From contig JAHJSM010000003.1 in NCBI GenBank assembly GCA_018830295.1, forward strand, positions 2,512-66,511: a stretch of DNA of 64,000 nt. Reading direction: 5' to 3'. This stretch comes from Patescibacteria group bacterium. GTDB taxonomy: Bacteria > Patescibacteriota > Minisyncoccia > Portnoybacterales > UBA2143. Positions 455 through 64,000 of the stretch are shown here, piece after piece. Position numbers and translations under genes: made by a program. Position 1 is the first letter of the stretch. The number at the start of each line of letters is the position of its first letter. Below the pieces are notes generated by a model that saw only the letters and a program-made list of their open reading frames with translations, made no database searches and was not told the origin of the DNA.

Positions 455-474
455 ATTATTTGTTTGTTTATTTG

Positions 475-1464: not shown

Positions 1465-1468
1465 ATTT

Positions 1469-3258: not shown

Positions 3259-3341
3259 TTATTGATATGATTTTATACCAAAAAACTATAATAATCAAGG
3301 TTAGACCTTGTGCCAATAATTTTAAAAATATAACTTAAATA

Positions 3342-3378
3342 AAAAGACCGATTAGTATTTTTATAACCAATCGGTCTC
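3342..3378. terminator. AT-rich hairpin plus T/A runs, bidirectional terminator-like
   Basis: An inverted repeat agaccgatt...aatcggtct is flanked by A/T runs. It lies downstream of the minus-strand gene ending at 3402. Confidence 0.35.
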
Positions 3379-3401
3379 AATAAAACTATTGTTAATTGAA
3401 A

Positions 3402-3854: not shown

Positions 3855-3913
3855 AACCTACCTCCTTTGATTCTCGGGTTAATATTTTAAATAACTATGA
3901 ACAGTATAATATA

Positions 3914-5014: not shown

Positions 5015-5016
5015 AT

Positions 5017-5919: not shown

Positions 5920-5926
5920 AAAAAAT

Positions 5927-6571
5927 TTATTTACCCTCAAACCTTCGTTCAAACAAATAATATATCAGCGCGGCAGCGGCGACTCCAATCAAAAACAAGG
6001 CCGCGAATAACCTCCAATCCGCCTCAATAAACGCTCCGCTTGCGTAAACAACCAAAAGCGCGAAAGGCAATTCCGCCAAAAATGTAATCAAAAGATATCG
6101 CCAAAAATCATAACGAAATATCCCAAAAACATAGCCCGTTTCCGAAGGAGTGGCAAGACGAAAAAGAAAAAGCAAAAGAAAAGTCATTCGCGGCTTCAGT
6201 TTAAGAGTCCACCCTTCCAACCTCTGCCGCCCCGCGATTTTGCTAACCAGTGGATACCCCGCGTACCGCCCAATCGCGTAAGAAACGCAACCGCCTAAAA
6301 GCCATCCAAGCAAAAGTAATAACAAAGTTGCCGCCTCCCCCCATGTCATCACCACTAAAGGAACAAGCGGAACACTGCTAAACATTCCCAAAAGCATAGA
6401 CACCGCCGCAAGCAAAACAAACGCCACGGGCGCGAAAAACGGATAGCGCTCAACAAACCCCTCAAAAACTGCCGTCAAATCAGACAAAGCGCCCCGCAAA
6501 TAAACAGAAGAGCCAAACAAAAAAGCGACAAACAAAACAAGAATGAAAATAAATATAGTTTTCTTGCGCAT
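5927..6571 (-). CDS. DedA/TVP38 (SNARE-associated) family membrane protein
   Basis: A multi-pass membrane protein whose G-rich loop and overall layout fit the DedA/VTT family. The start is assumed at MRKKTIF. Confidence 0.7.
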   Translation of the reverse strand: MRKKTIFIFILVLFVAFLFGSSVYLRGALSDLTAVFEGFVERYPFFAPVAFVLLAAVSMLLGMFSSVPLVPLVVMTWGEAATLLLLLLGWLLGGCVSYAIGRYAGYPLVSKIAGRQRLEGWTLKLKPRMTFLLLFLFRLATPSETGYVFGIFRYDFWRYLLITFLAELPFALLVVYASGAFIEADWRLFAALFLIGVAAAALIYYLFERRFEGK

Positions 6572-6719
6572 CTCTTTTATTATACCACATTCTCCCAATC
6601 AGTAAAAAATAATACCTGTTTTTATTGACTTTTACGGTCATATCAAGCACTATATTCAACAACAAGAATAGAAAGCCCTTTAAAAAATGAATAAGAAATA
6701 AAATAAGGAGGACTGAAAA

Positions 6720-8150
6720 ATGAATGAAAGGAACTTGATTTTGCCTGGAAATCCAAGATATCAACCCAAAGAAATGAAGGATTTTTTTGGCTATGACAAC
6801 CTTTACTTTGGTTTGGCGCAAGTAGAAATTGCCACATTGGAAGCGCTCGGAGAAATCGGCGTAATTCCTGCAGAAGAGATGGAATCGTTGACGCTGGAAC
6901 TGAAAGAAAAACTTTTGGCAATTCCAACAAATCAGGTGGATAAAATTGAGAGGGAAATCACCCATCATGATGTTCGCGCTTGGATTAGAGAAGCTCAAGA
7001 AATAATGAATTGCGCTTTAGCCAGATGGGTTCATATTCCTCTCACCAGTTATGACGCTCTGGATACCGGAAGAATGATCCAATTTCAATCCGCCTACCAG
7101 AAAGCGCTTAAACCATCATTAAAAGAAGTTGTCTCTCTTTTGGCGGATTTAGTTGAAAAATTTGCGGGACAACTGCAAATTGGCAGAACACACGGACAAC
7201 ACGCCTTGCCAATAACTGTTGGATTTTGGCTAGCAACCATCCTTCAACGAATTCTCTATAATTGGCGCCAAATGGATATTTATTCTCGAGGGTTGGTCGG
7301 CAAGATTTCAGGAGCGGTCGGAGCTTACAATGCCCAAGTCGGACTCCGGTTAGAACAACGATGCGGCGATAAAACTTTTGAAGAACGGATTTTAGAAAAA
7401 CTTAATCTAATCCCGGCAAAAATCAGCGCGCAAATTCTTCCGCCCGAACCGCTCGCCTATTTTCTCTTCTCGTGCGCTATGATGTCGGCCTCGCTTGGGC
7501 AGTTAGGAAGAGATTGTCGCCACTTAATGAGAACGGAAATAGCCGAAGTGATGGAATCCTTTGAAAAAAATCAGGTCGGCTCGTCCACTATGGCTCATAA
7601 GAGAAACCCGATTAATTTTGAGAATCTTGAAGGAATGTGGTTAAGAACAAAAAATGAATTCGGCAAAGTAATAGACACTCTCATCAGCGAGCACCAACGC
7701 GATTTGGTCGGCAGTTGCGTTGCCAGAGATTATCCTATTATTCTAATTAATCTCCAGCAACAGATTAATACTCTAACTAAAAAGAATAAAGAAGGAATTC
7801 CGTTTCTTTCAAGAATCGCGATTGACCCAGAGGCCTGCCAAAAAAATTTCGATATGAGCTCTAATCTTATTCTCTCTGAACCTCTATATATCGCTCTGCA
7901 AATGGCTGGCTACCAAAGAGATGCTCACGAATTGGTTAATAGAGTACTGGTCCCCGAAGCGAAAAAAACAAATTCGTCTTTAATTGAAGTATTAGAAAGA
8001 TTGGCTAATAAAGATGAATACCTTCAAGAAGTGTTGGGAAAGATTCCTGAAGAAATTCAAGAACTTTTCCGACATCCCGAAAACTACATCGGCAAAGCCA
8101 AAGAAAAAGCGCGAGAAATAGCGCTCTCTGCCAGACGCCTAATAGAGTAA
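6720..8150 (+). CDS. purB: adenylosuccinate lyase
   Basis: A fumarate-lyase superfamily protein carrying the signature GSSTMAHKRNP. It is 476 aa and lies next to purC/E. Confidence 0.8.
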   Translation: MNERNLILPGNPRYQPKEMKDFFGYDNLYFGLAQVEIATLEALGEIGVIPAEEMESLTLELKEKLLAIPTNQVDKIEREITHHDVRAWIREAQEIMNCALARWVHIPLTSYDALDTGRMIQFQSAYQKALKPSLKEVVSLLADLVEKFAGQLQIGRTHGQHALPITVGFWLATILQRILYNWRQMDIYSRGLVGKISGAVGAYNAQVGLRLEQRCGDKTFEERILEKLNLIPAKISAQILPPEPLAYFLFSCAMMSASLGQLGRDCRHLMRTEIAEVMESFEKNQVGSSTMAHKRNPINFENLEGMWLRTKNEFGKVIDTLISEHQRDLVGSCVARDYPIILINLQQQINTLTKKNKEGIPFLSRIAIDPEACQKNFDMSSNLILSEPLYIALQMAGYQRDAHELVNRVLVPEAKKTNSSLIEVLERLANKDEYLQEVLGKIPEEIQELFRHPENYIGKAKEKAREIALSARRLIE

Positions 8151-8182
8151 AAACCCAAAGAAGACAGAAAAGGAGACGCAAA

Positions 8183-9496
8183 ATGAATTATGAAAAAGGA
8201 TCACTGCTTAATGAAGGTAAAACAAAGAAAATTTGGGGCGTAAGGGATAACCCCGACATCGTGATTATTGAAAATAAGAAAGATATTACGGCCTTTGATG
8301 ACCCAAGTTTTACCAAGGAATTTGAAACTAAAGCCATTTATTCTACCAACATTACCTGCCGCGTATTTGAACTTTTGCGGAAAGCTGGCATCCCCGCGGC
8401 TTATCAAGAACAGGTTTCGCCGACCGAATTTCTGGCCAAAAAATGTATTATGATTCCCTTGGAAGCGGTTGCTCGACGATTTGCCGTAGGAAGTTATCTC
8501 AAAAGACACCCTGAATTAACTCCAAGAGAAAATGAAACGCCTCATCGTTTCCACCGATTAGTTATTGAATTTTTTCTTAAGACCACCGAAGGGAAGCTGG
8601 TTATACCGGGATATGGGAAAATAGTACAAGGACTTGACTCACAAAAAGGCGAAGAAGATCCTTTTATTACCAACCCTTACGAAGCAGAATGGCGTCTTTT
8701 TCATTCAAAGAAACCGTCATGGGATTCTGAAGCAGATTTCAAAAAATCCGTTTCAGCAATTAAGATTCTAGGAAGTGATTTTAAAGAAAAAATCGGGCAG
8801 ATGGAAAACATTCTCCGAAAAGTATTCTTAGTCCTTGAAGGCGCTTGGAATACTATGGGACTCCGAATGATTGATATGAAAATTGAATTCGGAATTACCG
8901 CCGACGGAAAACTTATAGTAGCCGATGTGATTGATAACGACAGCTGGCGGCTCCGCGACGCTAAATGGCAAGAATTAAGCAAAGAAGCGTTCCGCCAAGG
9001 AGAAGAACTTTCCGAAGTTGAAAAAAAATATGGAATTGTTTCTTCACTAATTGATCAAATCAGAATTCCTAAACAAGTTTTAATTTTCTGGAAAGGTTCA
9101 AAAAGTGATCTATCGCTCAATGTTCAAATCGTCCATTTTGACATTAATGAAATTATTTTATCCGGTCACAAATCTCCAAGAAAAGCCCTTGCTCAACTTG
9201 ATAAGATTATCGGGAAATATCCTGACGGCGGAGTAATTATTGTCAAAGTCGGACGGAGCAACGGACTTGGACCTATGCTTGCAGCCAGAACAAACTGGCC
9301 TGTTATTGCTATACCAACCACAATTGAAGAATACCCTGAAGACATTTGGAGCAGTATCCGAATGCCATCTAATGTTCCTTTGTTGACTACCTGGCCGGAA
9401 AAAAATGCTTTCCTGGCCGCCCTAAACATCCTGGCGCAAAAAAATCCGCTGGTTTATATGAGAAGGCAAATGCAAATTGAGGAACTTGATATCTAA
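8183..9496 (+). CDS. purC-purE: bifunctional SAICAR synthetase (PurC) / AIR carboxylase-like (PurE) fusion
   Basis: The N-terminal half resembles PurC (LLNEGKTKKIW...). The C-terminal ~150 aa resemble PurE (WKGSKSDLS..., SGHKSP, GGVIIVKVGRSNGLGPMLAARTNWPVIAIPT). Confidence 0.75.
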   Translation: MNYEKGSLLNEGKTKKIWGVRDNPDIVIIENKKDITAFDDPSFTKEFETKAIYSTNITCRVFELLRKAGIPAAYQEQVSPTEFLAKKCIMIPLEAVARRFAVGSYLKRHPELTPRENETPHRFHRLVIEFFLKTTEGKLVIPGYGKIVQGLDSQKGEEDPFITNPYEAEWRLFHSKKPSWDSEADFKKSVSAIKILGSDFKEKIGQMENILRKVFLVLEGAWNTMGLRMIDMKIEFGITADGKLIVADVIDNDSWRLRDAKWQELSKEAFRQGEELSEVEKKYGIVSSLIDQIRIPKQVLIFWKGSKSDLSLNVQIVHFDINEIILSGHKSPRKALAQLDKIIGKYPDGGVIIVKVGRSNGLGPMLAARTNWPVIAIPTTIEEYPEDIWSSIRMPSNVPLLTTWPEKNAFLAALNILAQKNPLVYMRRQMQIEELDI

Positions 9497-9547
9497 ACTC
9501 CTCAAAACACAAACCAAAAAGGAAGAGCAAAATCGCTCTTCCTTTTT

Positions 9548-34759: not shown

Positions 34760-34892
34760 GGGGACAGTCCCCGCCGCGAGGACTGTCCCCTTCTTAACAA
34801 AGGGACATTCCAAGGGGGGCAGTCCCCCGTCTCGGGGGCTGCCCCCGTCTTAATCTCAAGGGGACTGTCCCTCGCGGCGAGGGACAGTCCCC
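34760..34892. repeat. cluster of three GC hairpin units in divergent promoter region
   Basis: ggggacagtccccgccgcgaggactgtcccc / ggggggcagtcccccgtctcgggggctgccccc / ggggactgtccctcgcggcgagggacagtcccc. Confidence 0.85.
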
Positions 34893-34939: not shown

Positions 34940-35362
34940 ATGATTAAAAAAGAAACGGCCATCCAGCAAATCGTCAATCACTATTTCGCAACTAAGGGCT
35001 TAAACACCGACGAGCTTAAAAAAGACGCCAAAAAAGGAAAAATTATTTATTCCAGGCATACCCGCCCCGCGAAACAACTCTTAGAACTCGCTGGTTCCGT
35101 CACAAAAGCCAAAAAAGCCATCAATAAGGTCTCAAAGTGGGCGCGCTCAAGAAACCTTGATTACGCCATTGAGACCGTTTTTAAAAAATGGCTTGAATTA
35201 GATCGCCTCAAACCAAAAGAGATCGTCAAAAAACCTTTTTTTAGAGATGAACCGATGATTTGGTCAAAGACAAAAAAGAAATGGTTTGTTATTACCAAAG
35301 ACGGCGAATGGAAAGAATTCGCCGCTAAAGAATCCGAGATTGAATGGAAATTAGAAAAATGA
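34940..35362 (+). CDS. hypothetical basic protein
   Basis: A 140-aa K-rich protein with no recognisable domain. Confidence 0.4.
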   Translation: MIKKETAIQQIVNHYFATKGLNTDELKKDAKKGKIIYSRHTRPAKQLLELAGSVTKAKKAINKVSKWARSRNLDYAIETVFKKWLELDRLKPKEIVKKPFFRDEPMIWSKTKKKWFVITKDGEWKEFAAKESEIEWKLEK

Positions 35363-36654
35363 TTCTCAACATCCAAACAGGCGCCGACAATCCCGTTTTG
35401 CGCCGAAAAGCCAAAGAAGTTAAAAAAATCAACTCTCAAATCAGAGAGCTTATTTTAAATATGAAGGAAACGCTTGAAAGCGACGGCAATTCCATCGGTT
35501 TAGCCGCTCCACAAGTGGGCAAATCACTGCGCATCATCGCAATCAGCCCCGAACTAAATGAAAAATCTATCATTTTGATCAATCCAAAAATCGTTAAAAC
35601 ATCGTTTAGAAAAATAGTTTTAGAAGAGGGCTGTTTAAGTTTACCTAATATTTCCATCCCCATTAAAAGACATTCCAAAATAACGGTCCAAGCACTCAAC
35701 GAAAAAGGCGAGCCAATCAAGATAAAAACCGAAGGCCTCGCCGCCCGAATTATCCAACACGAAATCGACCATTTAGAGGGTATTTTAATTATTGACTCCC
35801 TCTTGGGGACAGTCCCTCGCCACGAGGGACTGTCCCCGGATTATCTTAAAACAATTTTTATCGGGACTTCTGAATTTGCCGTTCCTGTTTTGGAGGCGCT
35901 TGTTCGCTGTTCATTGTTCGCCGTTCAATGCGTTATTACCGCTCCCGATAAACCCGCTCCCTCGCCGATTAAAATAGCCACTTTGCAAAACGGGTTGCCT
36001 ATCTTACAACCCGAAAAAATATCAAAAGCCGCGGTGAAAATATCCAATTTAAAGCCCGACTTAATCATCACCGCCTCTTATGGACAAATCATTCCAAAAA
36101 ATATTTTAGACATTCCAAAATACGGCTCCATTAACATCCACCCTTCGCTTTTGCCAAAATATCGCGGACCGTCCCCCATCCAAACGGCCATTTTGAACGG
36201 CGACAAAAATACTGGCATTTCCGTGATGCTTATGGACGAAAAAATGGACCACGGGCCGATTATCGCCCAAAAAAAAGTCGCTATAAAAAAGCGCGAAAAC
36301 TATCAGGACTTGGAAAAAAGATTATCTCTCCTCTCGGCAAATTTTTTGTTAAAGATTCTGCCACGATATATCCAAGGAAAAATTAATCCGAAAAAACAAA
36401 ACAATTCTAAAGCCAGTTATACTAAAATACTTTCCCGCCAAGACGGACAAATTAAACCAAAACAAACCGCCCAAGAAATTGAAAGAATGCTCTGCGCTTT
36501 TACGCCTTGGCCCGGCGTCTGGACTATTATTAAAAAACGCCGAGTAAAAATCCTCAAAGCGAAGGTCGTCCAAGGGCGACTTCTCTTAGAAATTGTCCAG
36601 CCCGAAGGCAAAAAACCAATGACCGCGGAGGAATTTTTTCGTGGATTAAGGTAA
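35344..36654 (+). CDS. def-fmt: peptide deformylase - methionyl-tRNA formyltransferase fusion
   Basis: Def motifs GLAAPQVG, EGCLSLP and HEIDHLEG are present. A hairpin-derived linker SLLGTVPRHEGLSPDYLK follows. The Fmt N-terminus IFIGTSEFAVPVLEAL lacks its own Met and continues to an Fmt C-terminal domain. Confidence 0.8.
   Translation: MEIRKMILNIQTGADNPVLRRKAKEVKKINSQIRELILNMKETLESDGNSIGLAAPQVGKSLRIIAISPELNEKSIILINPKIVKTSFRKIVLEEGCLSLPNISIPIKRHSKITVQALNEKGEPIKIKTEGLAARIIQHEIDHLEGILIIDSLLGTVPRHEGLSPDYLKTIFIGTSEFAVPVLEALVRCSLFAVQCVITAPDKPAPSPIKIATLQNGLPILQPEKISKAAVKISNLKPDLIITASYGQIIPKNILDIPKYGSINIHPSLLPKYRGPSPIQTAILNGDKNTGISVMLMDEKMDHGPIIAQKKVAIKKRENYQDLEKRLSLLSANFLLKILPRYIQGKINPKKQNNSKASYTKILSRQDGQIKPKQTAQEIERMLCAFTPWPGVWTIIKKRRVKILKAKVVQGRLLLEIVQPEGKKPMTAEEFFRGLR
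35805..35837. repeat. GC hairpin element exactly at def/fmt junction (in frame)
   Basis: ggggacagtccctcgccacgagggactgtcccc. Confidence 0.85.
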
Positions 36655-45111: not shown

Positions 45112-45474
45112 TCAATTATCGGCTTTTTGGTTTTGTTTCATTGTTGAAGATATTTTATTAAATATCAAAGCAAATTCGTGAGCTTCCAACCATAATTTTC
45201 TAAGTTTATCTTTTTCTTCTGGATTTGATTGCGCCATTATTTCTATCCAATATTTGGTTTCTTGAATTTCTTTTCTGCAAATAAATATTTTGTTCTTAAA
45301 ATCTTTATTAGAACTGGCATTATTTGCTTCGCAATAATTAGCCCCAATACTTGTCGCTGATCTAATAAGTTGCGATATTAAATTTCTGTTTATTTCATCT
45401 TTTCTTATTTCTCTTAGCAGTATTATAATATTCTTGCTAAAATTCTTTGTTCTGTCTTCTAAATCATACTTCAT
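45112..45474 (-). CDS. four-helix-bundle protein (23S rRNA intervening-sequence protein family)
   Basis: SQLIRSATSIGANYCEA...KDFKNKIFICRKEIQETKYWIEI matches the family consensus (SQLrRAavSIpsNIAEG...ELETQL). Its position between rpoB and rpoC is unusual. Confidence 0.75.
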   Translation of the reverse strand: MKYDLEDRTKNFSKNIIILLREIRKDEINRNLISQLIRSATSIGANYCEANNASSNKDFKNKIFICRKEIQETKYWIEIMAQSNPEEKDKLRKLWLEAHEFALIFNKISSTMKQNQKADN

Positions 45475-51551: not shown

Positions 51552-51774
51552 GGGGACAGTCCCCTCTTGGGGACTGTCCCCGGATTCTCTTTTTTTATTA
51601 TACCAAAAAATTGAAAAAATAAAAGCCCGAATTATCCCCATCAGGTTTTTCCGATGGGAGCAGCCCCCGCCGCGAGGGCTGCCCCCTTTCCCTTTCTCGG
51701 GGGCAGCCCCCCGTCCTCGGGGGCTGCCCCCATTTCGCCACGAGGGGACAGTCCCCTCTGGGGGACTGTCCCCG
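51552..51774. repeat. large intergenic array of >=5 GC hairpin units
   Basis: ggggacagtcccctcttggggactgtcccc ... gggagcagcccccgccgcgagggctgccccc ... gggggcagccccccgtcctcgggggctgccccc ... ggggacagtcccctctgggggactgtcccc. Confidence 0.85.
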
Positions 51775-51783
51775 TCTTAGTTA

Positions 51784-53743: not shown

Positions 53744-53765
53744 AAATTTAAATTAGGGGGCTGCC

Positions 53766-53821
53766 CCCGCAACGGGGGCAGCCCCCATCCCCTCTCTTGG
53801 GGACTGTCCCCGTCTTAGCTA
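53766..53821. repeat. two GC hairpin units between dprA stop and comM start
   Basis: gggggctgcccccgcaacgggggcagccccc ... ggggactgtcccc. Confidence 0.85.
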
Positions 53822-54689
53822 TTTAGTATTATACTTCCCTCCTCTTAATTTAATTAGCCCCCTAATTTCCATCAACGATAACTTAACACTTAATTCCGAA
53901 ACCGACATTTCCAAACCGCGCGATAATTCATCTATCCCCATCGGCTCCTGCTCTAATTTTCTTAAAATCCTGGCTTCGGGGGCTGCCCCCGCAACGGGGG
54001 CAGCCCCCATCCCCTCTCTTGGGGACAGTCCCTCGTCTTCGGGGGCTGCCCCCATCCCCCTTAAAACATCCTCCGCGCTCAAAACCATTTCCGCCCCATT
54101 CTTAATTAATAAATTAGTCCCCTTTGACAACGAACCCGTTATCGGCCCTGGCGTGGCAAAAACCTTTCGGCCAAACTTCTTCGCGCAATTAGCAGTAATC
54201 AAACAACCGCTCTTTTCTCCCGCCTCAATCACCAAAAGCGCCTTTGATAAACCAGCCACAATTCTGTTTCTTTGAGGATAAGTCCAAAGCGCCGGCTTCA
54301 TCTCCCCTTCATATTCAGAAATTATTAGCCCCCCGCTCTCCAAAATACTCTTATAAAGTTTTTTTTTGATGAGCCGGATGAATTAAATCAATCCCGCATG
54401 GCATCACCGCAATCGTTCGCCCGCCCGCTTTAATCGCCGCTTCATGAGCCGCCGCATCGCCTCCATACATAAATCCAGAAACAATCGTAATTCCAGCCAT
54501 CGCGATTTCGCCAACTATCTGCTCCATTATCCGCTCGCCATAAGAAGTCAATCTCCTGCTCCCAATAACCGCCAAACAATTTTCAAAAATACTCAAGTCA
54601 AAATCGCCTTTATAATACAATTGCTTAGGCGCGCCCTTAGTTTGTTTTAAAAGTTCAGGATACTCTTCATCTTCCTTGTAAATTATCAT
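53819..54689 (-). pseudogene. dprA: DNA processing protein DprA interrupted by frameshift at A9/T9 homopolymer (or sequencing error/transcriptional slippage site)
   Basis: Two adjacent ORFs, 54351-54689 and 53819-54343, together cover DprA: the Rossmann part, then GGLIISEYEGE...RNRIVAGLS, then a winged helix. Removing one A/T from the run at about 54352-54362 joins them as ...HQKK-LYKSILESGG.... The downstream part also carries an in-frame hairpin cluster. Confidence 0.7.
53976..54055. repeat. three GC hairpin units inside dprA C-terminal region (in frame)
   Basis: gggggctgcccccgcaacgggggcagccccc ... ggggacagtccctcgtcttcgggggctgccccc, translated as MGAAPEDEGLSPREGMGAAPVAGAAPE. Confidence 0.85.
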
Positions 54690-56015: not shown

Positions 56016-59000
56016 TTAGTATCCCACCGCATCCGCAGAAGGCGTTTCTAGCTCTTCAACCACCGGTTCCTCGGCAACAGGTTCCTCAGTCACCGGCTCA
56101 GGAGAGGACACCTCCACCACCGGCTCCGGCTCGTCCGCTTCAGGGACTTCTTCGGGGGCTGCCCCCGCAACGGGGGCAGCCCCCTCTTCATCAACCACCG
56201 GGGGCAGTCCCTCGTCCGCGGGGGCTGCTCCCTCTTCATCAACCACAGGTTCCTCAACCACCGGTTCAACCACCGGGGGCAGTCCCTCGTCCGCGGGGGC
56301 TGCTCCCTCTTCATCAACCACCGGCTCCTCCGCAACCGCCCCGCATTCCCCGGCGACTGTTTGCGCCGCCCCACTCGCAACAAAGAAACAATACGGTAGT
56401 CCCGTCACTCTATCATACAATGTAATCCCTGCCTGCTCTTCAACTCCTCCTCCAACCTTCAATTGCTCTGTTTCAATATTTTTCGCCTTAATTTTATCAA
56501 CAACTAAAACTCCTTCCTCGTCCAAAACCAATCCCAATTCCGCCAAATCCATCCTTAATTCCTCCAGCGAATCCACTTCAACCAAATCCCCATTTTCATC
56601 CCGCTCCACTGTCAACAACGCCTCCAATTCCTCTAATCTATTATTCAACGCTTTAACCCCCGCTAAAGCAAACGAAGTATAATCATACAAACTAACCGAC
56701 TCCCCATCAGAAATCATCCCAATAGGGGGCAGTCCCCCGTCGCGGGGGCTGCTCCCGTCCGCAACTTCCCCTCCCCCATACCTCCCCATTTCCATCCCCG
56801 CAATCAGCCCTAAAATCTCAGCGTAATCCGCCTCCTCTAAATATGTAACTTCCATTTCATCCGCGCGCGGCAAATAGACATCCCATCCGTCAGCAATCGC
56901 GCTCCCCGCGCCCCGCCCAATCGTCAAGATATTCGTCGGCGACGAAGTAGCAATCCCAAACCGCCCCATCGTATCCAAAACCAACCCCACAGGGGGCAGA
57001 GGGGGCAGTCCCCCGTCGCGGGGGCTGCTCCCGTCCCATGCCTCCACCAACCTAATCAACCCCGCCTCCTCCAACTTCAGTGTTAATCCGTCCGTCAACT
57101 GCTCCATTCCCTCCATCCGCGCGTCAATCTCCTCAAACTGCTCTGGAATAACATCTCTAATATCCAACGCCAAATCGGAAATTTCATCCATCGCGAGCGT
57201 TAATTTAGCGTCAATCAAAAGCAACTGCGGAGAAACAATTTCGTTAATATCATCCTCTAAGTTCAAATTATCAATCGCTCCAGCAATCAAGATATTAACT
57301 TCATCTTCAATCTCCATCGCCGCGACCCGCTCCGTCACTTTATCTTCCACCTCTTCCACTGTGAGCGACTTATTCCGCCGCGAAATCAAAACATTAATCA
57401 CCCCTTCGCCTTCTTTAAGTCCCTCAAGCGCTACCCCAACCGTCGGGTCCCCCGCCCCTGCCCGCATAATATACCCTGGAACCGAAGCCGAAGTAAGCGA
57501 ATCCCCCGGGCGAATAGGTCCGCCTTCCGCAGAGACCTTCGCTGGCACCTGCCCAAGCATTCCAATAATAGCGTAATGCGGATTGTCTTCCCGCCTTTCA
57601 TCAGAAGGAGCGTTCCCCAAAAATGCCGGATTAGTTGAAACAATACCCATGATATTTCCATCAGCCGCCCGTTCGCACCGCTTGACCGCGTTTTCCCGTT
57701 CAATATCAACGCAAACCGCCTCGCCTGATTTCAAATCGGTATCAATGGAATAATAGTATTCAGCGTAGTCAGCCGAACCGGAAGTCCAAGCGTTGGTCGC
57801 GTTGACATAAGCCACATTAACGCCGTCGCTATTATGGTCAACTGTCAGCCGATAATCTGGCGTCGTGTCCCCGATGCCGACGTTGCCGCTATTTCTTTTG
57901 ACTGCAATTCCAAGAATTTCCGACCCAGCATCATAACCGACGATTTTAAGCACATAATTTGCTTCATCAAAAAGTATTTTAGCACCGTATGTGGAAAGGC
58001 CACGTTCCATAAAAGAGATTCCTTTATTGGTTCCCTCGGGGATATTCAAAGATAACAATTCATTTGGACTCGTCGTCCCGATGCCGACGTTGCCCGAGGC
58101 GTTTATACGCATTCGTTCCTTAATACTGGAACTATCATTTGTGTGGAAAGATAAATAACCAGTAGCAGAACCGTCAGTCGCAGATTCTTTTCTGCCCGCA
58201 ATTGCTCCAAAAATCTGTTTGCTCCCCGCACTGTTGTAAAAACCTCCCATACCGATTGCACCGCCTTTGTCTATGGCAAAAGAATCGCTGGTCATTGCCG
58301 CAATGTGAACCTGTGCATCTCCATTAAGTCCATCCGCCAAATTCTGATTGGCTTTGACAACATCTAAGGTTGTCCCCGGACTCACTGTCCCGATGCCGAT
58401 ATTACCCGCCGAAGTGACAACGAAGGAGGGCGTTGCTCCAACTGTGAAATCCCCACCAATATACATAGCTCCAGTAGTAGTTGCATTGCCATCAACCGTT
58501 AAATTACTTCCAAAGTGACCTGCTCCTTGAGTAAATAGACCCGTAGTAGAAGAAGCATATCCTGTTGTAACTAAATTCCCCCCTGAAGTAACCGTCAATA
58601 GATTTGCGCCGGTGGATGAGGCAATAGTAAATATATCTGAACTACCAGCTGTGCCTTGAATAGATAGTTTAGATAGTGGCGTTGTTGTTCCTATGCCGAC
58701 GTTGCCGCCGACAACTGATAACGTCTCAGTAAATGCACCACTATTTCCATAGCCAATTCCTACTCTACTCGCACTGTTTACGGAAAAAATTTGCAACAGA
58801 TTATTTTGAATACCAAACCCGTAACCAGTTCCCGCGGCATTGTCATATAATGCAATCTTATTTCCCACTGCTGTACCTAATGACAATGGAAAACTCGGCC
58901 CCGTCGTCCCGATGCCGACGTTGCCGCTAAATACTGCCTTACCTCCTATACTTAAAGTATCAGTGGTAGTTGCCGAACCCATTGTCAATCCAAAGGCGGT

Positions 59001-62000
59001 CGTGTCTGCGGCAGTATTAACAAGAAATGCGTCATCTACATTAAAAGTCGTTCCAACTAAAGTTAAATTAGTTCCGCCTAAATAGGTCGTGTTTGTGTCA
59101 GTCGCGTCTAATGTATTGCCAGTCCAAGCTAAATTAGTCCCTGCGGTTATCCGATTAGAGGGAGTGTCGTAAAAAGTATTCCAATTAGTCGTGCTTGCTG
59201 ATAAAGGGATTATGTATCCAGTAGTTAGGGCAATATCGTCTAAAGCCAACTCAATGCCTGTTGCTCCGACTGTTAAATTGGTTTCTGATGAAATATCAAC
59301 GGAAGTGCCTAATGTAATAATAGCGTCAGCGTTTCCAGCGGTTAAAGTGCCTACCGTAACTAAACTTGGAAGCGAACTTATTAAAGCGTGGGTTGTGGTC
59401 GCATACCAAGTTGTAAGAGGAAAATATCCCGCTATTGAGTGGTTGCCCCAGCCATAAGCGGTATTCCAGTTTCCTGAATTATTTGTGATTGAGGTGTCCC
59501 AAGCCGAGCCCGTGCTTAATGCTATTCCAGCTGCTGGATAGACCATACCTCCGCTTGGAGTGGTTGTTGCTATAACTAATCCAGTAGCGTCAACAGCTAA
59601 AAATGAACCAGCGGCTGTTGCTAAAGATGAGATATAAAAAGTATCTGTTGTCGTGGCAGAGTTCATTGAAAGCCCCCCAGACATTGTATCAGTAGTATTT
59701 AATACATAACTATCATTTGCCGTAACATAATATCCACCCGAAGCGTGATCCCCCCAACCGAATGCGGAATTCCACTCGTCAGAATTGCCGCCAAAGGCGG
59801 CAAAATGTCCCGTTGTTGTCGCGTTTCCGCTAACTAAAAGATTATCATCTATGGTTAAATCTCCTAATGAATCGGCGATGTTCCCTTGAAAATCAGATGC
59901 GCCCGCGACGGTTAAGTTGTTGTTGAAAGTAGAGACGCCGTCGGCCGAGAATGTTCCCCCCGCGTGGATATTGGATTGGGTGAAGAGTCCCGCCGTCGTG
60001 CTTGCGTAGCCGGCGACATATTCATTTCCGATTACATGGAATTTGTAGCTCGGCGCCGTCGTCCCAATCCCGACGTTGCCGCTTTCACTCACATAAAGCA
60101 ACGACGCCCCTGTGGAACTGGCGATGTTCATAACTGGTTGTCCTGCTGTGCCTTGAACGCTTAGTTTGGTTAAAGGTGAAGTTGTGCCTATCCCGACGTT
60201 GCCGCCGTCCAAAACAGTTATTCCATTACTTGCATTATCGTAAAGATGAAGTCCACTATCATTCGTCGCCGAGAGAGTATTCCCCGTGGAGAGTAAATTC
60301 CCAAGCCAAGAAGTCGTCGCTGAAAATAATGTTGAAGTCGCATTATTAAATTGCGCGTAATCAACAGTCGTAGCAAAAGTATTTGGAATATCATTACATC
60401 GTCCAGCACCGATAACTTGAACTACGCCTGTCGCGCTTGCCCTTGAAACTCTTGCCACGGCTTGAATACAGTCGCTTGCTCCTGTCGGGCGTGTGCTTGT
60501 TAATGTTCCCGGAGTAGTACTTAAAAATAAAGCGTCATTTACGGCATAAGCCGAAGTATTTATTCCTGATAAAACGCCGGATGATATTACTGTTCCATTT
60601 GTATTATTTGATATACTGCCTGTGGTAAGTCCAATTGCAGGATATTTCGCGCTGTCATCAGCGTCAGCTAAATCTATCGTTATCCTGCCTTGTCCGACAT
60701 TATATCCTGTAATATAAACTGGAGTGCCTGCTGATATAGTAGAACCACTTGTATTTCTAACTAAAATCAGAGAAGAGGCTGAACTTACATTAACAGGACT
60801 ATTCGGGTGCGACTGTATCATCCAACCGCCCACATCTTCCATAAATACTAAAGTCATTATTTGGTCAGGGGCTAATACTCCGTTTGTCCCTCCGTGGAAT
60901 ATTGACGAACCTGACAATACTGAATTGTCTTGAAGTTCTATTGTGAAAGAACCTGTGTTTTGAATATATAAAATTTGCCCTTGCGTAGATGAAGCGATAG
61001 TCGGGGTGCCTATCATTACATAATCAGCGTCAGATGAGATATTAAGCAAGGAATTTGTTGAAACTATCGCAGTTGTAGAAGCTGTTAATACTTGCGTGGT
61101 ATTAGGAGAAGTGAATAATCTTTTTGTGGTTAAGTCGCCGTCCACCCTCGCATTGCCATAAACATCCAGCTTGTATGCAGGAGAAGTCGTGCCTATGCCG
61201 ACATTTCCCGCAAATGTCGCACCCTCGCCTACCCGTAATTCCCCCGAAGCGTTTAAGTCGCCTGCGGTGAAGTTGAAATACCCGTCATCTACGCCTACGG
61301 ATAAATAACCCGTTGTGGTTAGGTTGCCTGTTTGGGTGATGGCTCCGTTGAAGGCGGTGTTGTGGGCAATAATTCCGTTGGCGACAAAGTTGTGCGTTCC
61401 TTCTACTTCTATGTCATAGACCTGTTCAGGAGGAAGGATGCTAATTCTCGCAATTTTGACGAATTTGACGGAGCCGAAACTCTCCTCAACATCCGATGAG
61501 CTCCCGAGTTCCGCCAAATTCGCGACGGCGATTGTGTCGCCTTCGCTTAATTCAGCGACGCGCGTCCATCGCGAACTTGACAGAGTATCCGCGTCGCTGT
61601 TATTATTCTCTTGTATGTCTAAATTATCATCTTCATTTACTATCATTGATAATAATAATTTGCGGGGCGTTTTGGCTCCGCCAAAAATGTTGTCCAAAGA
61701 ACTATTGGAAGATATTTTGGATTTGGTCTCATATTCAAGACCTAAAGTGGCAGAAAAATTAAACAAAGATTTCAAAGAAGCCAAAAAAGAAAGCTTAGTT
61801 GACGGCGAAGCATTAAGAAAATCATTGAAAATATAATTATGTTCCGCTATAATTTCACCCGCAAAGCCGCCAAAGAAATCAAAGGAATGCCCCGCAATAT
61901 CCAACGCCGAATTTTCAACGACATCTTGACTATTTGCCGCCTCAATCATCCTTTGCAGGACAGAAGCGTTTTGAAACTCCGAGGGAAATACAGCGCGCCC

Positions 62001-64000
62001 ACTTTCCGACTGCGTTCCGGCAATTACCGAATTATTTTCCGTATCATTAACCATATCATCGTCATCGGAAGCGTCAGACACAGGCAAGAGGGATATTGAT
62101 TTGTTCAGCGCAAGATATGGATGATTCCCCGTCGTTCTAATTATCCTGCTGTCTTCTGTTTCAATCTCGTAAATGGTCTTAACCCCCATATCCATCAACT
62201 GCTTAATTTTGGCAGGCGTTAATTCGCCTGTTTTTTCATTAAGGGATAAGACATAGTCGCCCGGCTGGACTTCGTCTATACGGGTGTATTTGGGGGCAGC
62301 CCTCGCAACGGGGGCTGCCCCCGAATTCACTATCGGCAAGAGCGTATCCCCCGTCACGCATTGCCCGTCCACGGTTAAGTCCTTCTTAATGTATTGGCTT
62401 CCAGTTGTCGTCGCGTTTCCTTCTATGTTGAGATAACCGAGAACAGAGAGATTGTCGGAGATGGTTGTCGTGCTGTTGTTTGCGGCGAGGTCTATGTTTA
62501 AGTCGCCGTTTGTGTCTATGGTGAATGAGGCGTATTTGGATGTTGAGACATCATAAGAGAGCCGCAATTGTTCGGTCGTTGAGGAGGCGTGAATGCGGCC
62601 GACTACAGCCAGAGCTGAATCTGGCGTGGTTGTCCCGATGCCGACATTGCCCGATGTTCCTACGCCGCTGGACGGGCCCACATAGAATGTTGGGATATTA
62701 CTATTAAATCCAATGGCAAAAGAATTGTCTTTATTGTGAACTAATGGAACGGCACCACTTACTCCAGAACCTAACGCAAAAGTCGAATCCGCGTCGCTAC
62801 TAATACTAATGTATTTTCCTATACCAAAAGAAAAATTTCCGGCATTAGTAACTCCATACCCTAATGCTATAGCGTCTTGTCCGCTTAAAGTAAGATCTCT
62901 GCCAAATCCCTTTGAGTAACTTCCGCTGGCGATTATATCACTTCCAATTGCGATCTTGCCAGAAGTGGAGAAGAGAATATCCCCTGTTCCCGCAACAGTT
63001 AGGCCACTCTTAAGGGTAGTAACCCCGTCGGCGGAGAATGTTCCGCCAATATGCCCATTCCCCTGCGTAAAGAATCCTGCTGTCGTAGAGGCGTAGCCAG
63101 TAATATTAAGATTGCCTGTTTGGGTGATTGCTCCGTTGAAGATAGTGTTGTGGGCGATAATGCCGTTGGCGACGAAGTTGTGAGTTCCTTCTACCTCTAT
63201 GTCATAGACCTGTTTTCTGCCCGTTGGCTCAATGGAAACAATTTTTTCCCAAATCGCTAAATTACCCTCGCCAGCCGCCGCGATTTCCATACCCGGTTGA
63301 AGATAGATAACTTTTGTCCACTTTTGACTATTGACAGAAATTTGAGGTTTAGTATTATTAAAGTATATGCGATTAAATAAATCCCAATTTGAAGCGATTT
63401 CCAGTTTTTTTGTTGATTTAGCAAAGATATTGTTCGCCTCAACTGTGGTTGGGTTTTTCATTCCAGGTTCCTCCGGAATTGTTAATATGCCCGTATTCAC
63501 CATCGGTTCTGTATCCACTTTGGGGTTGTTCACATTGAGCGTTATTTTATTAAAGTCCGAATAATTATGAATTATCTTATTGTCGCTTATATTATTACTT
63601 GTATCATGGCTACCATTATTTTCATTTGGGCCATGGAACATAGAAAATAAATTATGAATAATATTATTCTCTACATTATCGCCGGCATTGTCATTTTGAC
63701 TATGTTCGGTGTCGCTTTCTTCTATAATTCCAAATCTAACTAAGTATGGGTGGTTGCCCGTCGTTTCAATCTGTTTACCCGATTCCGTGGTTAAACGAAA
63801 TGTCGTTTTGACCCCCATATCCATCAACTGCTTAATCTTGGCAGGCGTTAATTCGCCTGTTTTTTCATTAAGGGATAAGACATAGTCGCCCGGCTGGACT
63901 TCATCTATGCGGGTGTATTTGGGGACAGCCCTCGCAACGGGGGCTGCCCCCGAATTCACTATCGGCAAGAGCGTATCCCCCGTCACGCATTGCCCGTCCA
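56016..64000 (-). CDS. giant tail-fibre-like repeat surface protein (>2656 aa, N-terminus beyond window) containing two intein-like modules and many hairpin-element insertions
   Basis: The reading frame is open for 7.97 kb. It holds many GNVGIGTT(S/T)P beta-helix-like repeats and a conserved C-terminal-proximal segment ADYAEYY...GEAV...IMGIVSTNPAFLGN. The acidic tail contains tandem duplications. Confidence 0.7.
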   Translation of the reverse strand, partial: DGQCVTGDTLLPIVNSGAAPVARAVPKYTRIDEVQPGDYVLSLNEKTGELTPAKIKQLMDMGVKTTFRLTTESGKQIETTGNHPYLVRFGIIEESDTEHSQNDNAGDNVENNIIHNLFSMFHGPNENNGSHDTSNNISDNKIIHNYSDFNKITLNVNNPKVDTEPMVNTGILTIPEEPGMKNPTTVEANNIFAKSTKKLEIASNWDLFNRIYFNNTKPQISVNSQKWTKVIYLQPGMEIAAAGEGNLAIWEKIVSIEPTGRKQVYDIEVEGTHNFVANGIIAHNTIFNGAITQTGNLNITGYASTTAGFFTQGNGHIGGTFSADGVTTLKSGLTVAGTGDILFSTSGKIAIGSDIIASGSYSKGFGRDLTLSGQDAIALGYGVTNAGNFSFGIGKYISISSDADSTFALGSGVSGAVPLVHNKDNSFAIGFNSNIPTFYVGPSSGVGTSGNVGIGTTTPDSALAVVGRIHASSTTEQLRLSYDVSTSKYASFTIDTNGDLNIDLAANNSTTTISDNLSVLGYLNIEGNATTTGSQYIKKDLTVDGQCVTGDTLLPIVNSGAAPVARAAPKYTRIDEVQPGDYVLSLNEKTGELTPAKIKQLMDMGVKTIYEIETEDSRIIRTTGNHPYLALNKSISLLPVSDASDDDDMVNDTENNSVIAGTQSESGRAVFPSEFQNASVLQRMIEAANSQDVVENSALDIAGHSFDFFGGFAGEIIAEHNYIFNDFLNASPSTKLSFLASLKSLFNFSATLGLEYETKSKISSNSSLDNIFGGAKTPRKLLLSMIVNEDDNLDIQENNNSDADTLSSSRWTRVAELSEGDTIAVANLAELGSSSDVEESFGSVKFVKIARISILPPEQVYDIEVEGTHNFVANGIIAHNTAFNGAITQTGNLTTTGYLSVGVDDGYFNFTAGDLNASGELRVGEGATFAGNVGIGTTSPAYKLDVYGNARVDGDLTTKRLFTSPNTTQVLTASTTAIVSTNSLLNISSDADYVMIGTPTIASSTQGQILYIQNTGSFTIELQDNSVLSGSSIFHGGTNGVLAPDQIMTLVFMEDVGGWMIQSHPNSPVNVSSASSLILVRNTSGSTISAGTPVYITGYNVGQGRITIDLADADDSAKYPAIGLTTGSISNNTNGTVISSGVLSGINTSAYAVNDALFLSTTPGTLTSTRPTGASDCIQAVARVSRASATGVVQVIGAGRCNDIPNTFATTVDYAQFNNATSTLFSATTSWLGNLLSTGNTLSATNDSGLHLYDNASNGITVLDGGNVGIGTTSPLTKLSVQGTAGQPVMNIASSTGASLLYVSESGNVGIGTTAPSYKFHVIGNEYVAGYASTTAGLFTQSNIHAGGTFSADGVSTFNNNLTVAGASDFQGNIADSLGDLTIDDNLLVSGNATTTGHFAAFGGNSDEWNSAFGWGDHASGGYYVTANDSYVLNTTDTMSGGLSMNSATTTDTFYISSLATAAGSFLAVDATGLVIATTTPSGGMVYPAAGIALSTGSAWDTSITNNSGNWNTAYGWGNHSIAGYFPLTTWYATTTHALISSLPSLVTVGTLTAGNADAIITLGTSVDISSETNLTVGATGIELALDDIALTTGYIIPLSASTTNWNTFYDTPSNRITAGTNLAWTGNTLDATDTNTTYLGGTNLTLVGTTFNVDDAFLVNTAADTTAFGLTMGSATTTDTLSIGGKAVFSGNVGIGTTGPSFPLSLGTAVGNKIALYDNAAGTGYGFGIQNNLLQIFSVNSASRVGIGYGNSGAFTETLSVVGGNVGIGTTTPLSKLSIQGTAGSSDIFTIASSTGANLLTVTSGGNLVTTGYASSTTGLFTQGAGHFGSNLTVDGNATTTGAMYIGGDFTVGATPSFVVTSAGNIGIGTVSPGTTLDVVKANQNLADGLNGDAQVHIAAMTSDSFAIDKGGAIGMGGFYNSAGSKQIFGAIAGRKESATDGSATGYLSFHTNDSSSIKERMRINASGNVGIGTTSPNELLSLNIPEGTNKGISFMERGLSTYGAKILFDEANYVLKIVGYDAGSEILGIAVKRNSGNVGIGDTTPDYRLTVDHNSDGVNVAYVNATNAWTSGSADYAEYYYSIDTDLKSGEAVCVDIERENAVKRCERAADGNIMGIVSTNPAFLGNAPSDERREDNPHYAIIGMLGQVPAKVSAEGGPIRPGDSLTSASVPGYIMRAGAGDPTVGVALEGLKEGEGVINVLISRRNKSLTVEEVEDKVTERVAAMEIEDEVNILIAGAIDNLNLEDDINEIVSPQLLLIDAKLTLAMDEISDLALDIRDVIPEQFEEIDARMEGMEQLTDGLTLKLEEAGLIRLVEAWDGSSPRDGGLPPLPPVGLVLDTMGRFGIATSSPTNILTIGRGAGSAIADGWDVYLPRADEMEVTYLEEADYAEILGLIAGMEMGRYGGGEVADGSSPRDGGLPPIGMISDGESVSLYDYTSFALAGVKALNNRLEELEALLTVERDENGDLVEVDSLEELRMDLAELGLVLDEEGVLVVDKIKAKNIETEQLKVGGGVEEQAGITLYDRVTGLPYCFFVASGAAQTVAGECGAVAEEPVVDEEGAAPADEGLPPVVEPVVEEPVVDEEGAAPADEGLPPVVDEEGAAPVAGAAPEEVPEADEPEPVVEVSSPEPVTEEPVAEEPVVEELETPSADAVGY
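56154..56190. repeat. GC hairpin unit in giant ORF tail
   Basis: gggggctgcccccgcaacgggggcagccccc. Confidence 0.85.
56196..56322. repeat. tandem duplication (~75 nt x2) in C-terminal tail of giant ORF embedding hairpin elements
   Basis: caccgggggcagtccctcgtccgcgggggctgctccctcttcatcaaccac occurs twice and encodes EEGAAPADEGLPPVV repeats. Confidence 0.6.
56725..56757. repeat. GC hairpin unit in giant ORF
   Basis: gggggcagtcccccgtcgcgggggctgctccc. Confidence 0.8.
56992..57035. repeat. GC hairpin unit in giant ORF
   Basis: gggggcagagggggcagtcccccgtcgcgggggctgctccc. Confidence 0.8.
61438..61836 (+). CDS. Phd/YefM-like antitoxin candidate (start uncertain)
   Basis: The C-terminal part, FTIIDNNNLRGVLAPPKMLSKELLEDILDLVSYSRPKVAEKLNKDFKEAKKE, parallels YefM ([48 protein letters not shown]). 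The stop lies 2 nt before the toxin ATG. It lies antisense inside intein-like module 2. Confidence 0.45.
   Translation: MLILAILTNLTEPKLSSTSDELPSSAKFATAIVSPSLNSATRVHRELDRVSASLLLFSCMSKLSSSFTIIDNNNLRGVLAPPKMLSKELLEDILDLVSYSRPKVAEKLNKDFKEAKKESLVDGEALRKSLKI
61839..62099 (+). CDS. type II toxin, RelE/ParE family
   Basis: The 86-aa sequence KLRGKYSAPTFRLRSGNYRIIFRIINHIIVIGSVRHRQEGY matches the RelE/ParE consensus (kL.g....y.lRvGdYRiiY.i.d....v..v.hRkdvY). It is translationally coupled to the upstream ORF. Confidence 0.75.
   Translation: MFRYNFTRKAAKEIKGMPRNIQRRIFNDILTICRLNHPLQDRSVLKLRGKYSAPTFRLRSGNYRIIFRIINHIIVIGSVRHRQEGY
62292..62322. repeat. GC hairpin unit inside intein-like module 2
   Basis: gggggcagccctcgcaacgggggctgccccc. 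Confidence 0.85.
63147..63989 (-). other. intein-like module 1 of giant ORF
   Basis: Cys at 63987-63989 (CVTGDTLLPIV...) ... QVYDIEVEGTHNFVANGIIAHN, then Thr. The core is low-complexity with no recognisable endonuclease motif. It contains hairpin element NSGAAPVARAVP. Confidence 0.7.
63921..63951. repeat. GC hairpin unit inside intein-like module 1
   Basis: ggggacagccctcgcaacgggggctgccccc. Confidence 0.85.

Follow-up and report, generated by a model that had tools for sequence, protein, structure and literature searches.

Predicted class-1 inteins with gene cassettes on the opposite strand in a giant repeat protein of a Patescibacteria group bacterium

Introduction

Two modes of persistence are usually ascribed to inteins: homing by means of an endonuclease, or survival in essential enzymes as decaying remnants. 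The window analyzed here, a stretch of 64,000 nucleotides from contig JAHJSM010000003.1 of a Patescibacteria group bacterium (assembly GCA_018830295.1, positions 2,512 to 66,511 of the forward strand), contains most of a giant gene that encodes a repetitive, tail-fibre-like protein with intein-like modules. The locus raises the question of what these modules are and what occupies their cores. An earlier reading made from the letters of the window (the sequence-only reading) described 2 modules with low-complexity cores and assigned them to the bacterial intein-like (BIL) class. With a probability of roughly 0.75, we read them instead as class-1 inteins of a family specific to bacteria of the candidate phyla radiation (CPR) and to DPANN archaea, which are inserted at a junction of the GNVGIGTT repeats and carry antisense gene cassettes, with an addiction logic, in the slot of the endonuclease.

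Results

Boundaries, motifs, and fold of the modules

The 2 modules in the window, designated inteins 1 and 2 (Table 1), start with CVTGDTLLPIV, include TTGNHPYL, and end with GTHNFVANGIIAHN (…NFVANGIIAHN), which is followed by Thr. Both are embedded in the same extein context, DLTVDGQ–C…AHN–T(I/A)FNGAITQTGNL (dashes mark the junctions). Intein 1 has the layout Cys1 … TTGNH … GTHNFVANGIIAHN then Thr+1, in which a disordered linker separates the N-terminal splicing half (~63714–63989) from the C-terminal half (~63147–63335). The start, the end, the following Thr, and the shared context had been read correctly from the translation in the sequence-only reading, and the span that it gave for the first module, 63147–63989, coincides exactly with the Cys1 and terminal Asn codons. 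Its count of 2 has to be raised to at least 3, because a third copy in the same gene, intein 0, with the junctions DLTVDGQ–…–TVFNGAITQTGNL, lies beyond the window, in the 1.9 kb that the source contig sequence (L001) adds past the window end. Cys1, …AHN, and Thr+1 are found in all 3 copies, and all catalytic residues are intact.

Table 1. Features of the host gene and of its 3 inteins. Positions are those of the window unless L001 is given; the strand of intein 0 itself is that of the window, and the strand of its promoter-like site, cargo, and hairpin is that of L001, which runs the other way.
Feature	Position	Strand	Remarks
Host gene	56016..>64000	-	ORF/translation; 3' 2660 codons inside the window, continues past the window end
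Intein 0	L001 79-1233 (= window-equivalent 65864..64710, beyond window)	-	385 aa; same ORF
Promoter-like site, intein 0	L001 979-950	-	same N18 site as intein 2, 11/12
DUF433, intein 0	L001 939-700	-	83 bits, full-length profile
DUF5615/Mut7-C PIN-like, intein 0	L001 719-363	-	46 bits, full-length; overlaps DUF433 gene by 20 nt
Terminator-like hairpin, intein 0	L001 228-207	-	identical copy
Intein 1	63147..63989	-	281 aa; Cys1 codon starts 63989, terminal Asn codon ends 63147
Promoter-like site, intein 1	63331..63358	+	TTGACA-N16-TATTAT, 11/12; ends 8 nt ahead of cargo ATG
Cargo of intein 1	63367..63564	+	65-aa protein, two hydrophobic helices (predicted); antisense to intein linker
Terminator-like hairpin, intein 1	63840..63861	+	GGCAGGCGTTAATTCGCCTGTT then TTTT; within N-terminal splicing-domain coding sequence
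GC palindrome, intein 1	63922..63950	.	GGGG(A/G)CAGCCCTCGCAACGGGGGCTGCCCC; encodes NSGAAPVARA
Intein 2	61359..62360	-	334 aa; termini and extein context as intein 1
Promoter-like site, intein 2	61577..61606	+	TTGACA-N18-TATTAT, upstream TG, 11/12; ends 8 nt ahead of ATG 61615
Putative antitoxin, intein 2	61615..61836	+	73 aa, MSKLSSSF…RKSLKI; in-frame ATG 61615; stop 2 nt ahead of toxin ATG
RelE/ParE-superfamily toxin (predicted), intein 2	61839..62099	+	86 aa; codon-aligned antisense to linker
Terminator-like hairpin, intein 2	62211..62232	+	with T-run; 112 nt past toxin stop codon
GC palindrome, intein 2	62293..62321	.	GGGG(A/G)CAGCCCTCGCAACGGGGGCTGCCCC; encodes NSGAAPVARA

Comparison with family profiles revealed that both modules exceed the cut-offs of 3 canonical intein models: PF14890 Intein_splicing (71.7 and 69.9 bits for inteins 1 and 2, E = 8e-20 and 3e-19, cut-off 35.8), TIGR01445 intein_Nterm (31.2 and 24.7 bits, cut-off 24.5), and TIGR01443 intein_Cterm (39.3 and 39.0 bits, cut-off 15.6). 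AlphaFold (AF2) models, which were built from a 39-sequence alignment, have a predicted local distance difference test score (pLDDT) above 90 in the splicing halves (residues 1–90 and 220–281 of intein 1; residues 1–90 and 260–334 of intein 2) and below 50 in the core of intein 1 and in residues 100–255 of intein 2. A Foldseek search with the intein 1 model gave the NpuDnaB intein as its top match (4o1r, E = 5e-11, target template modeling score 0.89), followed by the Ssp DnaB and Mtu RecA mini-inteins, with BIL2 structures (6y75) lower down; the fold search was run on the intein 1 model, and the intein 2 model has confident HINT halves. Among 39 aligned family members, Cys1 is conserved in 29 of 30, the block-B His in 38 of 39, and the terminal Asn in 34 of 35; the +1 residue is Thr in 30 of 33 relatives and Ser in 2. 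An intein-free homologue (P0075) aligns across the junction spliced in silico with 73% identity over 110 residues and a 4-residue gap. The sequence-only reading had proposed the profile, fold, and conservation checks, all of which turned out in favor of inteins.

That the cores lack an endonuclease motif, as had been claimed for the first module, also holds: the sense-frame cores of the 3 inteins are predicted to be disordered and gave no Pfam match, to an endonuclease (LAGLIDADG, HNH, or other) or to any other family, even at E ≤ 10. A stretch of intein 2 that resembled a degenerate LAGLIDADG motif ('FDFFGGFAGEI') was rejected; it likewise has no Pfam match at E ≤ 10 and results from reading the RelE/ParE gene described below in antisense.

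By these sequence criteria the modules are canonical class-1 inteins, and their intact motifs predict that they splice. The earlier assignment to the BIL class, in which the domains would cleave or rearrange a surface protein for variability without clean splicing, finds some support in the host protein, which is repetitive, variable, and tail-fibre-like where a conserved enzyme would be usual; weak PT-HINT and Hint matches and the BIL2 structures among the fold matches also point that way. Against it stand the canonical models that both modules pass and, in a judgment made without a dedicated BIL profile, the PT-HINT and Hint scores, which fall below threshold (19.6 bits against a cut-off of 27.7, and 18.4 bits against 29.7). 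Thr+1 and His-Asn are conserved family-wide, the modules are inserted at one fixed junction in a conserved motif, the intein-free homologue is colinear over that junction, and true inteins are the top structural matches. In their sequence the modules are inteins and not BIL domains, and we consider the BIL reading improbable.

Cargo on the opposite strand

The 'low-complexity cores' of the sequence-only reading are, as predicted from the complementary strand, antisense readings of intact separate genes: a RelE/ParE pair in the second module and a 65-aa membrane protein in the first. The predicted toxin of intein 2 matched PF05016 with 37.2 bits (cut-off 23) over profile positions 1–88 of 89, and its solved relatives in the Protein Data Bank (PDB) are RelE3 (3bpq, E = 3e-4), aRelE, and E. 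coli RelE. Gene order alone marks the 73-aa ORF ahead of it as a putative antitoxin. Intein 0 carries a DUF433 gene and a DUF5615/Mut7-C PIN-like gene, and the gene pairs in the inteins show the classic spacing or overlap of toxin–antitoxin genes. The cargo of intein 1 is predicted to be a conserved small membrane protein with 2 helices; its family comprises 48 cluster representatives at E ≤ 1e-3 (of 1.8 billion), mostly of 63–70 aa and matched end to end. Searches of NCBIfam with the cargo proteins gave no usable matches.

The antisense-cargo layout was also found on 4 other metagenomic contigs (L004, L005, L007, and L009), in each of which no stop interrupts the host frame along the cargo. 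(i) L004 (P0006) has an antisense RelE/ParE-like toxin gene whose product is 41% identical to the toxin of intein 2 (E = 4e-14), an ORF upstream of it, and a perfect 12/12 promoter-like site; Pfam searches with this toxin and its putative antitoxin gave no matches, and the toxin is linked to that of intein 2 solely by the 41% identity. (ii) L005 (P0018) and L007 carry DUF433 and DUF5615 genes antisense in inteins. (iii) L009 (P0002) combines a backbone of the intein 0/2 type with a membrane protein of the intein 1 type (40% identity, E = 1.6e-13) and an 11/12 promoter-like site. An intein with antisense DUF433/DUF5615 genes is found on 3 contigs in all, with cargo proteins that are 44–67% identical; preservation of the layout at this divergence indicates that it is old and stable. 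The antisense-cargo arrangement is common, not universal.

L007 (positions 1–9507) and L008 are higher in GC and contain several copies of the intein family among toxin–antitoxin-type genes in both orientations. On L007 these are the antisense DUF433/DUF5615 genes and, in sense, ParE (4788–5090), HicA (8651–8890), and DUF2283 genes. An in-frame TGA (3386) lies within an insert that follows block A, and variant C-termini (…HNFVAGHYVN…) lack His-Asn. L007 could be at a broken or 'fractured' stage, could contain pseudogenes, or could work by another mechanism.

The recurrence of the layout bears on the main rival explanation, in which the inteins are decaying, the cargo genes are recent neutral hitch-hikers on a silent landing pad, and the open host frame reflects survivorship. 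This explanation and the one that we prefer part only over a benefit of the cargo to the intein. Toxin–antitoxin modules are well known for their mobility, inteins that are otherwise near-identical carry different cargo, some relatives have no cargo or have sense-strand domains, and on L007 members of the intein family stand among broken ORFs and toxin–antitoxin genes on the sense strand, all of which would fit hitch-hiking. A recent and neutral origin is harder to reconcile with the DUF433/DUF5615 layout kept on 3 diverged contigs, with catalytic residues that are intact in all 3 copies here, and with a promoter-like site that recurs at the same intein/cargo boundary next to different cargoes (described below). 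We regard hitch-hiking as possible, if rather doubtful.

Selection on the two frames

Copies of the cargo genes on different contigs differ mostly at position 3 of the cargo-frame codons. The differences at codon positions 1/2/3 were 24/10/43, 25/16/43, and 33/20/41 for DUF433; 48/26/57, 52/35/78, and 52/35/79 for DUF5615; and 42/36/49 for RelE/ParE. Amino-acid identity was 39–67% in the cargo frame versus 17–44% in the codon-aligned antisense frame. The excess at position 3 and the higher identity in the cargo frame show that the cargo proteins are under purifying selection.

This pattern also speaks to whether the cargo genes are shadow ORFs, that is, chance open frames opposite a long ORF with spurious Pfam matches. 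Long ORFs often have open antisense frames, as exemplified by the 132-aa ORF at 61438–61836, which is mostly shadow over the C-terminal domain of intein 2, and the ENA gene caller left the cargo genes in L001 uncalled. On L007, however, the gene caller did annotate DUF433 and DUF5615. Furthermore, the cargo proteins give full-length matches above curated cut-offs to 3 unrelated families, the gene pairs are spaced or overlap as toxin–antitoxin genes do, the substitution pattern by codon position favors the cargo frame, and it is the sense translation that is predicted to be disordered and without family match. The family matches together with the codon-position pattern effectively refute the shadow-ORF reading, to which we give almost no weight.

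To stay open, the host frame has to be free of stops across the cargo. The cargo of each of 2 cassettes was re-encoded synonymously with the codon usage of the genome (TTA alone accounts for 2.5% of codons) in 20,000 versions per cassette; the host frame was stop-free in 76 of the 20,000 resamplings (0.4%) for the intein 2 cassette and in 705 (3.5%) for that of intein 0. Chance alone would leave the host frame open less often than is observed. The cassettes offer a clean natural example of two-strand coding, in which one frame is kept for protein function and the other only has to stay open.

Promoter-like and terminator-like sites

Promoter-like sites of the 3 inteins lie at the boundary between the cargo and the C-terminal half, antisense to the host gene, and their -10 regions align (Table 1). 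The sequences of inteins 0 and 2 resemble each other as far as the -10 box and part directly after it. Sites that match the consensus at 11–12 of 12 positions occur at the equivalent boundary in 6 of the 7 cargo-carrying inteins checked (inteins 0, 1, and 2 and those of L004, L007, and L009; not that of L005). Those of inteins 0, 1, and 2 stop 8–10 nt short of the first cargo ATG, a spacing that suggests mRNAs that are leaderless or nearly so. At the other end of the cassette, a terminator-like hairpin with a T-run is common to the 3 copies and is predicted to work in the cargo direction only. This arrangement suggests that the cassettes are transcribed independently of the host gene.

Target site, copies, and relatives

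A total of 74 relatives were found in CPR bacteria and DPANN archaea, most of them incomplete proteins at the ends of contigs. The consensus target of the family is …GNVGIGTTSPxQKLHVEGQ–CVTGDTLL … GI(I/V)AHN–TYISGNVGIGTT; across the 3 copies here, the junction is DLTVDGQ–C…AHN–T(V/I/A)FNGAITQTGNL, and the intein-free junction DNA is GACGGGCAA–ACN. At least 3 inteins thus occupy the same repeated context in a single gene for 4450 aa, and several fragments of relatives span the C-terminal end of one intein and the beginning of the following one (only 23 residues apart in P0030). P0008 is a mini-intein of 183 aa without cargo.

The sequence-only reading had suggested comparing the module termini at the nucleotide level. 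Inteins 2 and 1 are 97% identical on the N-terminal side (62176–62371 versus 63805–64000) and 86% identical on the C-terminal side (61306–61426 versus 63094–63214). Among the 3 copies, the N-terminal halves are 97–100% identical and the C-terminal halves about 90%; between copies, the splicing halves keep 90–100% nucleotide identity and the centre collapses. The N-exteins of inteins 1 and 2 are 53–73% identical, with a jump to 100% at the intein boundary, which indicates intein-specific copying or homogenization; the identical N-exteins of inteins 0 and 1 fit a segmental duplication. Recombination or gene conversion across the near-identical flanks of the inteins has probably spread the copies and let them swap cargo. 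The near-identity of the splicing halves also makes it conceivable that an N-half pairs with the C-half of a different intein, so that the exteins between them would be skipped and isoforms of different length would arise.

In 4 relatives (P0019, P0034, P0038, and P0066), the endonuclease slot is occupied in the sense frame by an NYN (PIN-like nuclease) domain. P0048 and P0058 have in common a conserved sense-frame domain without a Pfam name (…KNSPAHEAS…); this domain and the NYN domains are candidate new intein-associated nucleases. These fusions raise the question of whether the nuclease-type cargo (DUF5615, the RelE fold, and NYN in relatives) is a new homing nuclease that cuts intein-free repeat junctions, as the exact placement of the cargo in the endonuclease slot and the copies at several identical target sites in one gene would also allow. 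RelE/ParE, DUF433/DUF5615, and Mut7-C-type PIN proteins are, however, known as RNA- or gyrase-directed toxins and not as site-specific DNases; the cargo of intein 1 is a predicted membrane protein; and homologous recombination suffices for spread in a repetitive gene. A homing nuclease is therefore quite unlikely.

GC palindromes and the loop after block A

The GC palindrome of inteins 1 and 2 is the same (Table 1) and lies in the loop after block A, between HINT strands 1 and 2 (residues ~12–23; pLDDT ~65–75), ~60 nt beyond the terminator-like hairpin in the cargo direction. The sequence-only reading had noted this hairpin and its position and had proposed that it predates the duplication of the modules or was homogenized by gene conversion. 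The shared position and the homogenized look are borne out, and the identity of the 2 palindromes looks to reflect homogenization of the entire N-terminal half. A single ancient insertion does not hold, because intein 0 has a palindrome of another class at the same loop (GGGACTGTCCC, as against GGGGCAGCCC in inteins 1 and 2) and relatives differ again. The palindrome of intein 0 (GTGAATTCGGGGACTGTCCCCGC/…) has 23-nt arms that are 96% complementary. Elsewhere in the family, the loop holds KSEEFSISNSQFSISEQ (P0016), a RRRRRK stretch in many members, or no insert (P0008). The different inserts, or none, indicate that the loop is a tolerated insertion hot spot. No inverted repeats were found in the block-A insert of L010, and that all inserts at this loop are palindromes is unproven. 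Arg/Lys-rich runs (RRRRRK…) directly after block A are seen in, for example, P0017, P0019, P0034, P0037–P0039, P0045–P0049, P0052–P0055, and P0059–P0064.

The window, from a genome of 43% GC, contains ~30 GC-rich palindromes of 2 classes (GGGGCAGCCCC…GGGGCTGCCCC and GGGACAGTCCC…GGGACTGTCCC), examples being those at 18498, 19327, 29893, 34761–34890, 41419, 47845 (rpoB), 51061, 51553–51775, 52146/52191, 53757–54050, and 56155–57036. About 40% of them are in frame within ORFs (among them rpoB, a TPR/Wzy protein, UPF0102, a dprA fragment, and the giant gene in its C-terminal part). Palindromes between genes often take the form …AAGATG-palindrome-CATCTT…, which abuts start codons in either direction. 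The C-terminal tail of the giant protein (56016–57100, minus strand) is acidic and rich in Pro, Val, and Glu, with a GC content of up to 53%, and includes repeated peptides that palindromes encode: two copies each of DGSSPRDGGLPP and EEGAAPADEGLPP, and EEGAAPVAGAAPEE. One further palindrome, at 35806 (~aa 154), falls exactly in the linker between the Pfam domains of a peptide deformylase and a methionyl-tRNA formyltransferase, which are fused in a 436-aa ORF (35344–36654, plus strand); its insertion may have joined the 2 adjacent genes.

Host gene and genomic setting

The host gene is called at 4450 aa on its source contig, k141_539904 (744,622 bp) of ENA ERZ27247117, and one unbroken ORF spans all 3 inteins. 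The protein is a GNVGIGTT-repeat giant, repetitive and non-enzymatic, and homologues of its exteins carry the names 'tail fiber domain-containing' and PF13884, in agreement with the tail-fibre-like host, with modules at homologous positions, that had been described before. A PDB sequence search with the C-terminal region of the protein gave no match. A phage tail fibre was considered and is ruled out by the setting: the gene has housekeeping neighbours (dprA, a gene for a Mg-chelatase-like ATPase, rpoB, rpoC, ftsK, and recA) on a contig of 745 kb, which indicates a bacterial chromosome and not a phage. The closest relatives at the protein level come from Candidatus Portnoybacteria and further Patescibacteria. 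Rfam matches in the whole window were 2 tRNAs only, and the palindromes and cassettes match no RNA family.

Among the neighbours, dprA is split on this contig into 2 ORFs of 112 aa and 174 aa (53819–54343 and upstream) and is intact, at 344 aa, on the related Logan contig L002 (L001 11254–12124 versus L002 1289–2323). A gene for a 120-aa PF05635 '23S rRNA intervening-sequence protein' (four-helix bundle; 45112–45474, minus strand) lies between rpoB and rpoC and is an unusual interruption of this conserved pair.

Discussion

In the explanation that we prefer, each intein would excise itself and join its flanks through an acyl shift at Cys1, attack by Thr+1, and cyclization of Asn. The endonuclease slot would be filled by a cassette on the opposite strand, with a promoter at the boundary between the cargo and the C-terminal domain, a cargo that is probably leaderless, and a one-way terminator within the coding sequence of the N-terminal domain. 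As the host frame is stop-free across the cassette, its antisense translation would form a disordered linker that leaves with the intein. The intein would then be a phenotypically silent landing pad in a very long gene of a compact genome, and a toxin–antitoxin cargo would penalize loss of the intein by recombination between the surrounding repeats, with addiction in the place of homing. The broader proposal, that the family has swapped homing for addiction and become a cassette platform with built-in promoter and terminator and interchangeable cargo, such that cells losing the intein are killed or arrested, is tentative, and we hold it to be less probable than its failure.

Several points weigh against the addiction-cassette reading. 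The addiction role of the cargo is pure inference, and the activity of the toxin–antitoxin pairs is predicted from sequence. The cargo of intein 1 is not recognizable as a toxin–antitoxin pair; the 73-aa putative antitoxin of intein 2 matched no family in Pfam or NCBIfam and has no detectable similarity to that of L004; and no antisense cargo was found on L010 (P0013) or L011 (P0048). Openness of the host frame could be survivorship, in which only open insertions persist, without ongoing selection. The near-consensus sigma-70-type promoters and the terminators are called from matches to a consensus. The terminator-like hairpin was looked for on the other contigs and not found, for which reason the terminator is weighted lightly, and it may simply reflect the conserved NEKTGELTPAK codons. 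A disordered linker of 130–290 residues might slow or impair splicing. The number of inteins in the host gene, at least 3, is a lower bound that applies to the part of the protein from about residue 1140 onward.

If the preferred reading holds, these inteins would represent a third life-style, multiplied at a repeated target in a non-enzymatic giant protein, with the endonuclease slot as a landing pad for opposite-strand genes, mostly toxin–antitoxin modules. Should the cargo stabilize the intein, this would be a new survival route for a selfish protein-splicing element and a new niche for toxin–antitoxin genes, in which the overlying ORF of 4450 codons hides them from gene callers. In CPR/DPANN assemblies, the family would also account for a large number of contig breaks and of 'partial Hint-domain proteins'. 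For intein engineering, the apparent tolerance of unstructured inserts of 130–290 residues, and of a palindrome-encoded loop near the catalytic Cys, is of interest.

Comparison with known systems

Our literature search was incomplete, and absence from it is absence of evidence only: it returned nothing on inteins in giant proteins of CPR bacteria or on inteins that enclose toxin–antitoxin genes, and the antisense-cargo arrangement was not reported under inteins in CPR, Patescibacteria, or DPANN or inteins in tail fibres. The phiCbK paper describes TerL and RNR inteins only.

The class-1 mini-inteins Npu and Ssp DnaB and Mtu RecA share with the inteins described here the HINT fold, Cys1, the block-B TxxH, the block-F/G …GTHNF…AHN, and the +1 nucleophile. 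They differ in that the host here is repetitive and non-enzymatic, several copies occur per gene, and a disordered linker of 130–290 residues is predicted in the endonuclease slot. The likeness to BIL domains (Amitai et al. 2003) lies in a HINT domain within variable, repetitive, and probably surface-exposed proteins; BIL domains have motif variants of their own, usually no conserved +1 nucleophile, and are not known to occupy a fixed site with intein-free alleles.

The cargo resembles type II toxin–antitoxin modules in its small upstream partner, its abutting or overlapping toxin gene, and a strong promoter-like site just upstream. RelBE/ParDE and DUF433 with PIN-like DUF5615 are such modules, the addiction cassettes of mobile elements; unlike the usual ones, those here are nested antisense in the coding sequence of a protein-splicing element. 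The palindromes, in turn, can be likened by description only to Rickettsia palindromic elements and REP-like repeats, which insert in frame into genes: they likewise form a genome-wide family that also occurs in frame in other genes, but at ~29–47 nt they are much shorter and fall into 2 sequence classes.

Endonuclease-bearing inteins, in which LAGLIDADG or HNH domains are fused in frame at a conserved insertion site (PMC6801210, PMC8966425), likewise carry extra genetic material at a permissive site between the splicing halves. In contrast to these, the cargo here is on the opposite strand with a promoter-like site of its own, would be translated separately, and consists of a predicted toxin–antitoxin pair or small membrane protein, and the intein holds only a meaningless antisense translation. 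The closest described arrangement is the 'fractured gene' reported in 2009, in which an endonuclease gene stands free, under control elements of its own, inside a split intein (PMC2677866); the insert is co-oriented, the host gene is in 2 ORFs, and trans-splicing repairs the protein (PMC2677866). A free-standing gene with its own expression signals inside an intein is the feature common to both, and L007 may be an intermediate, broken state toward such a fractured gene. In the gene described here, the host is not broken into 2 ORFs: it runs as one continuous ORF across an inverted insert, and the cargo is something other than an endonuclease.

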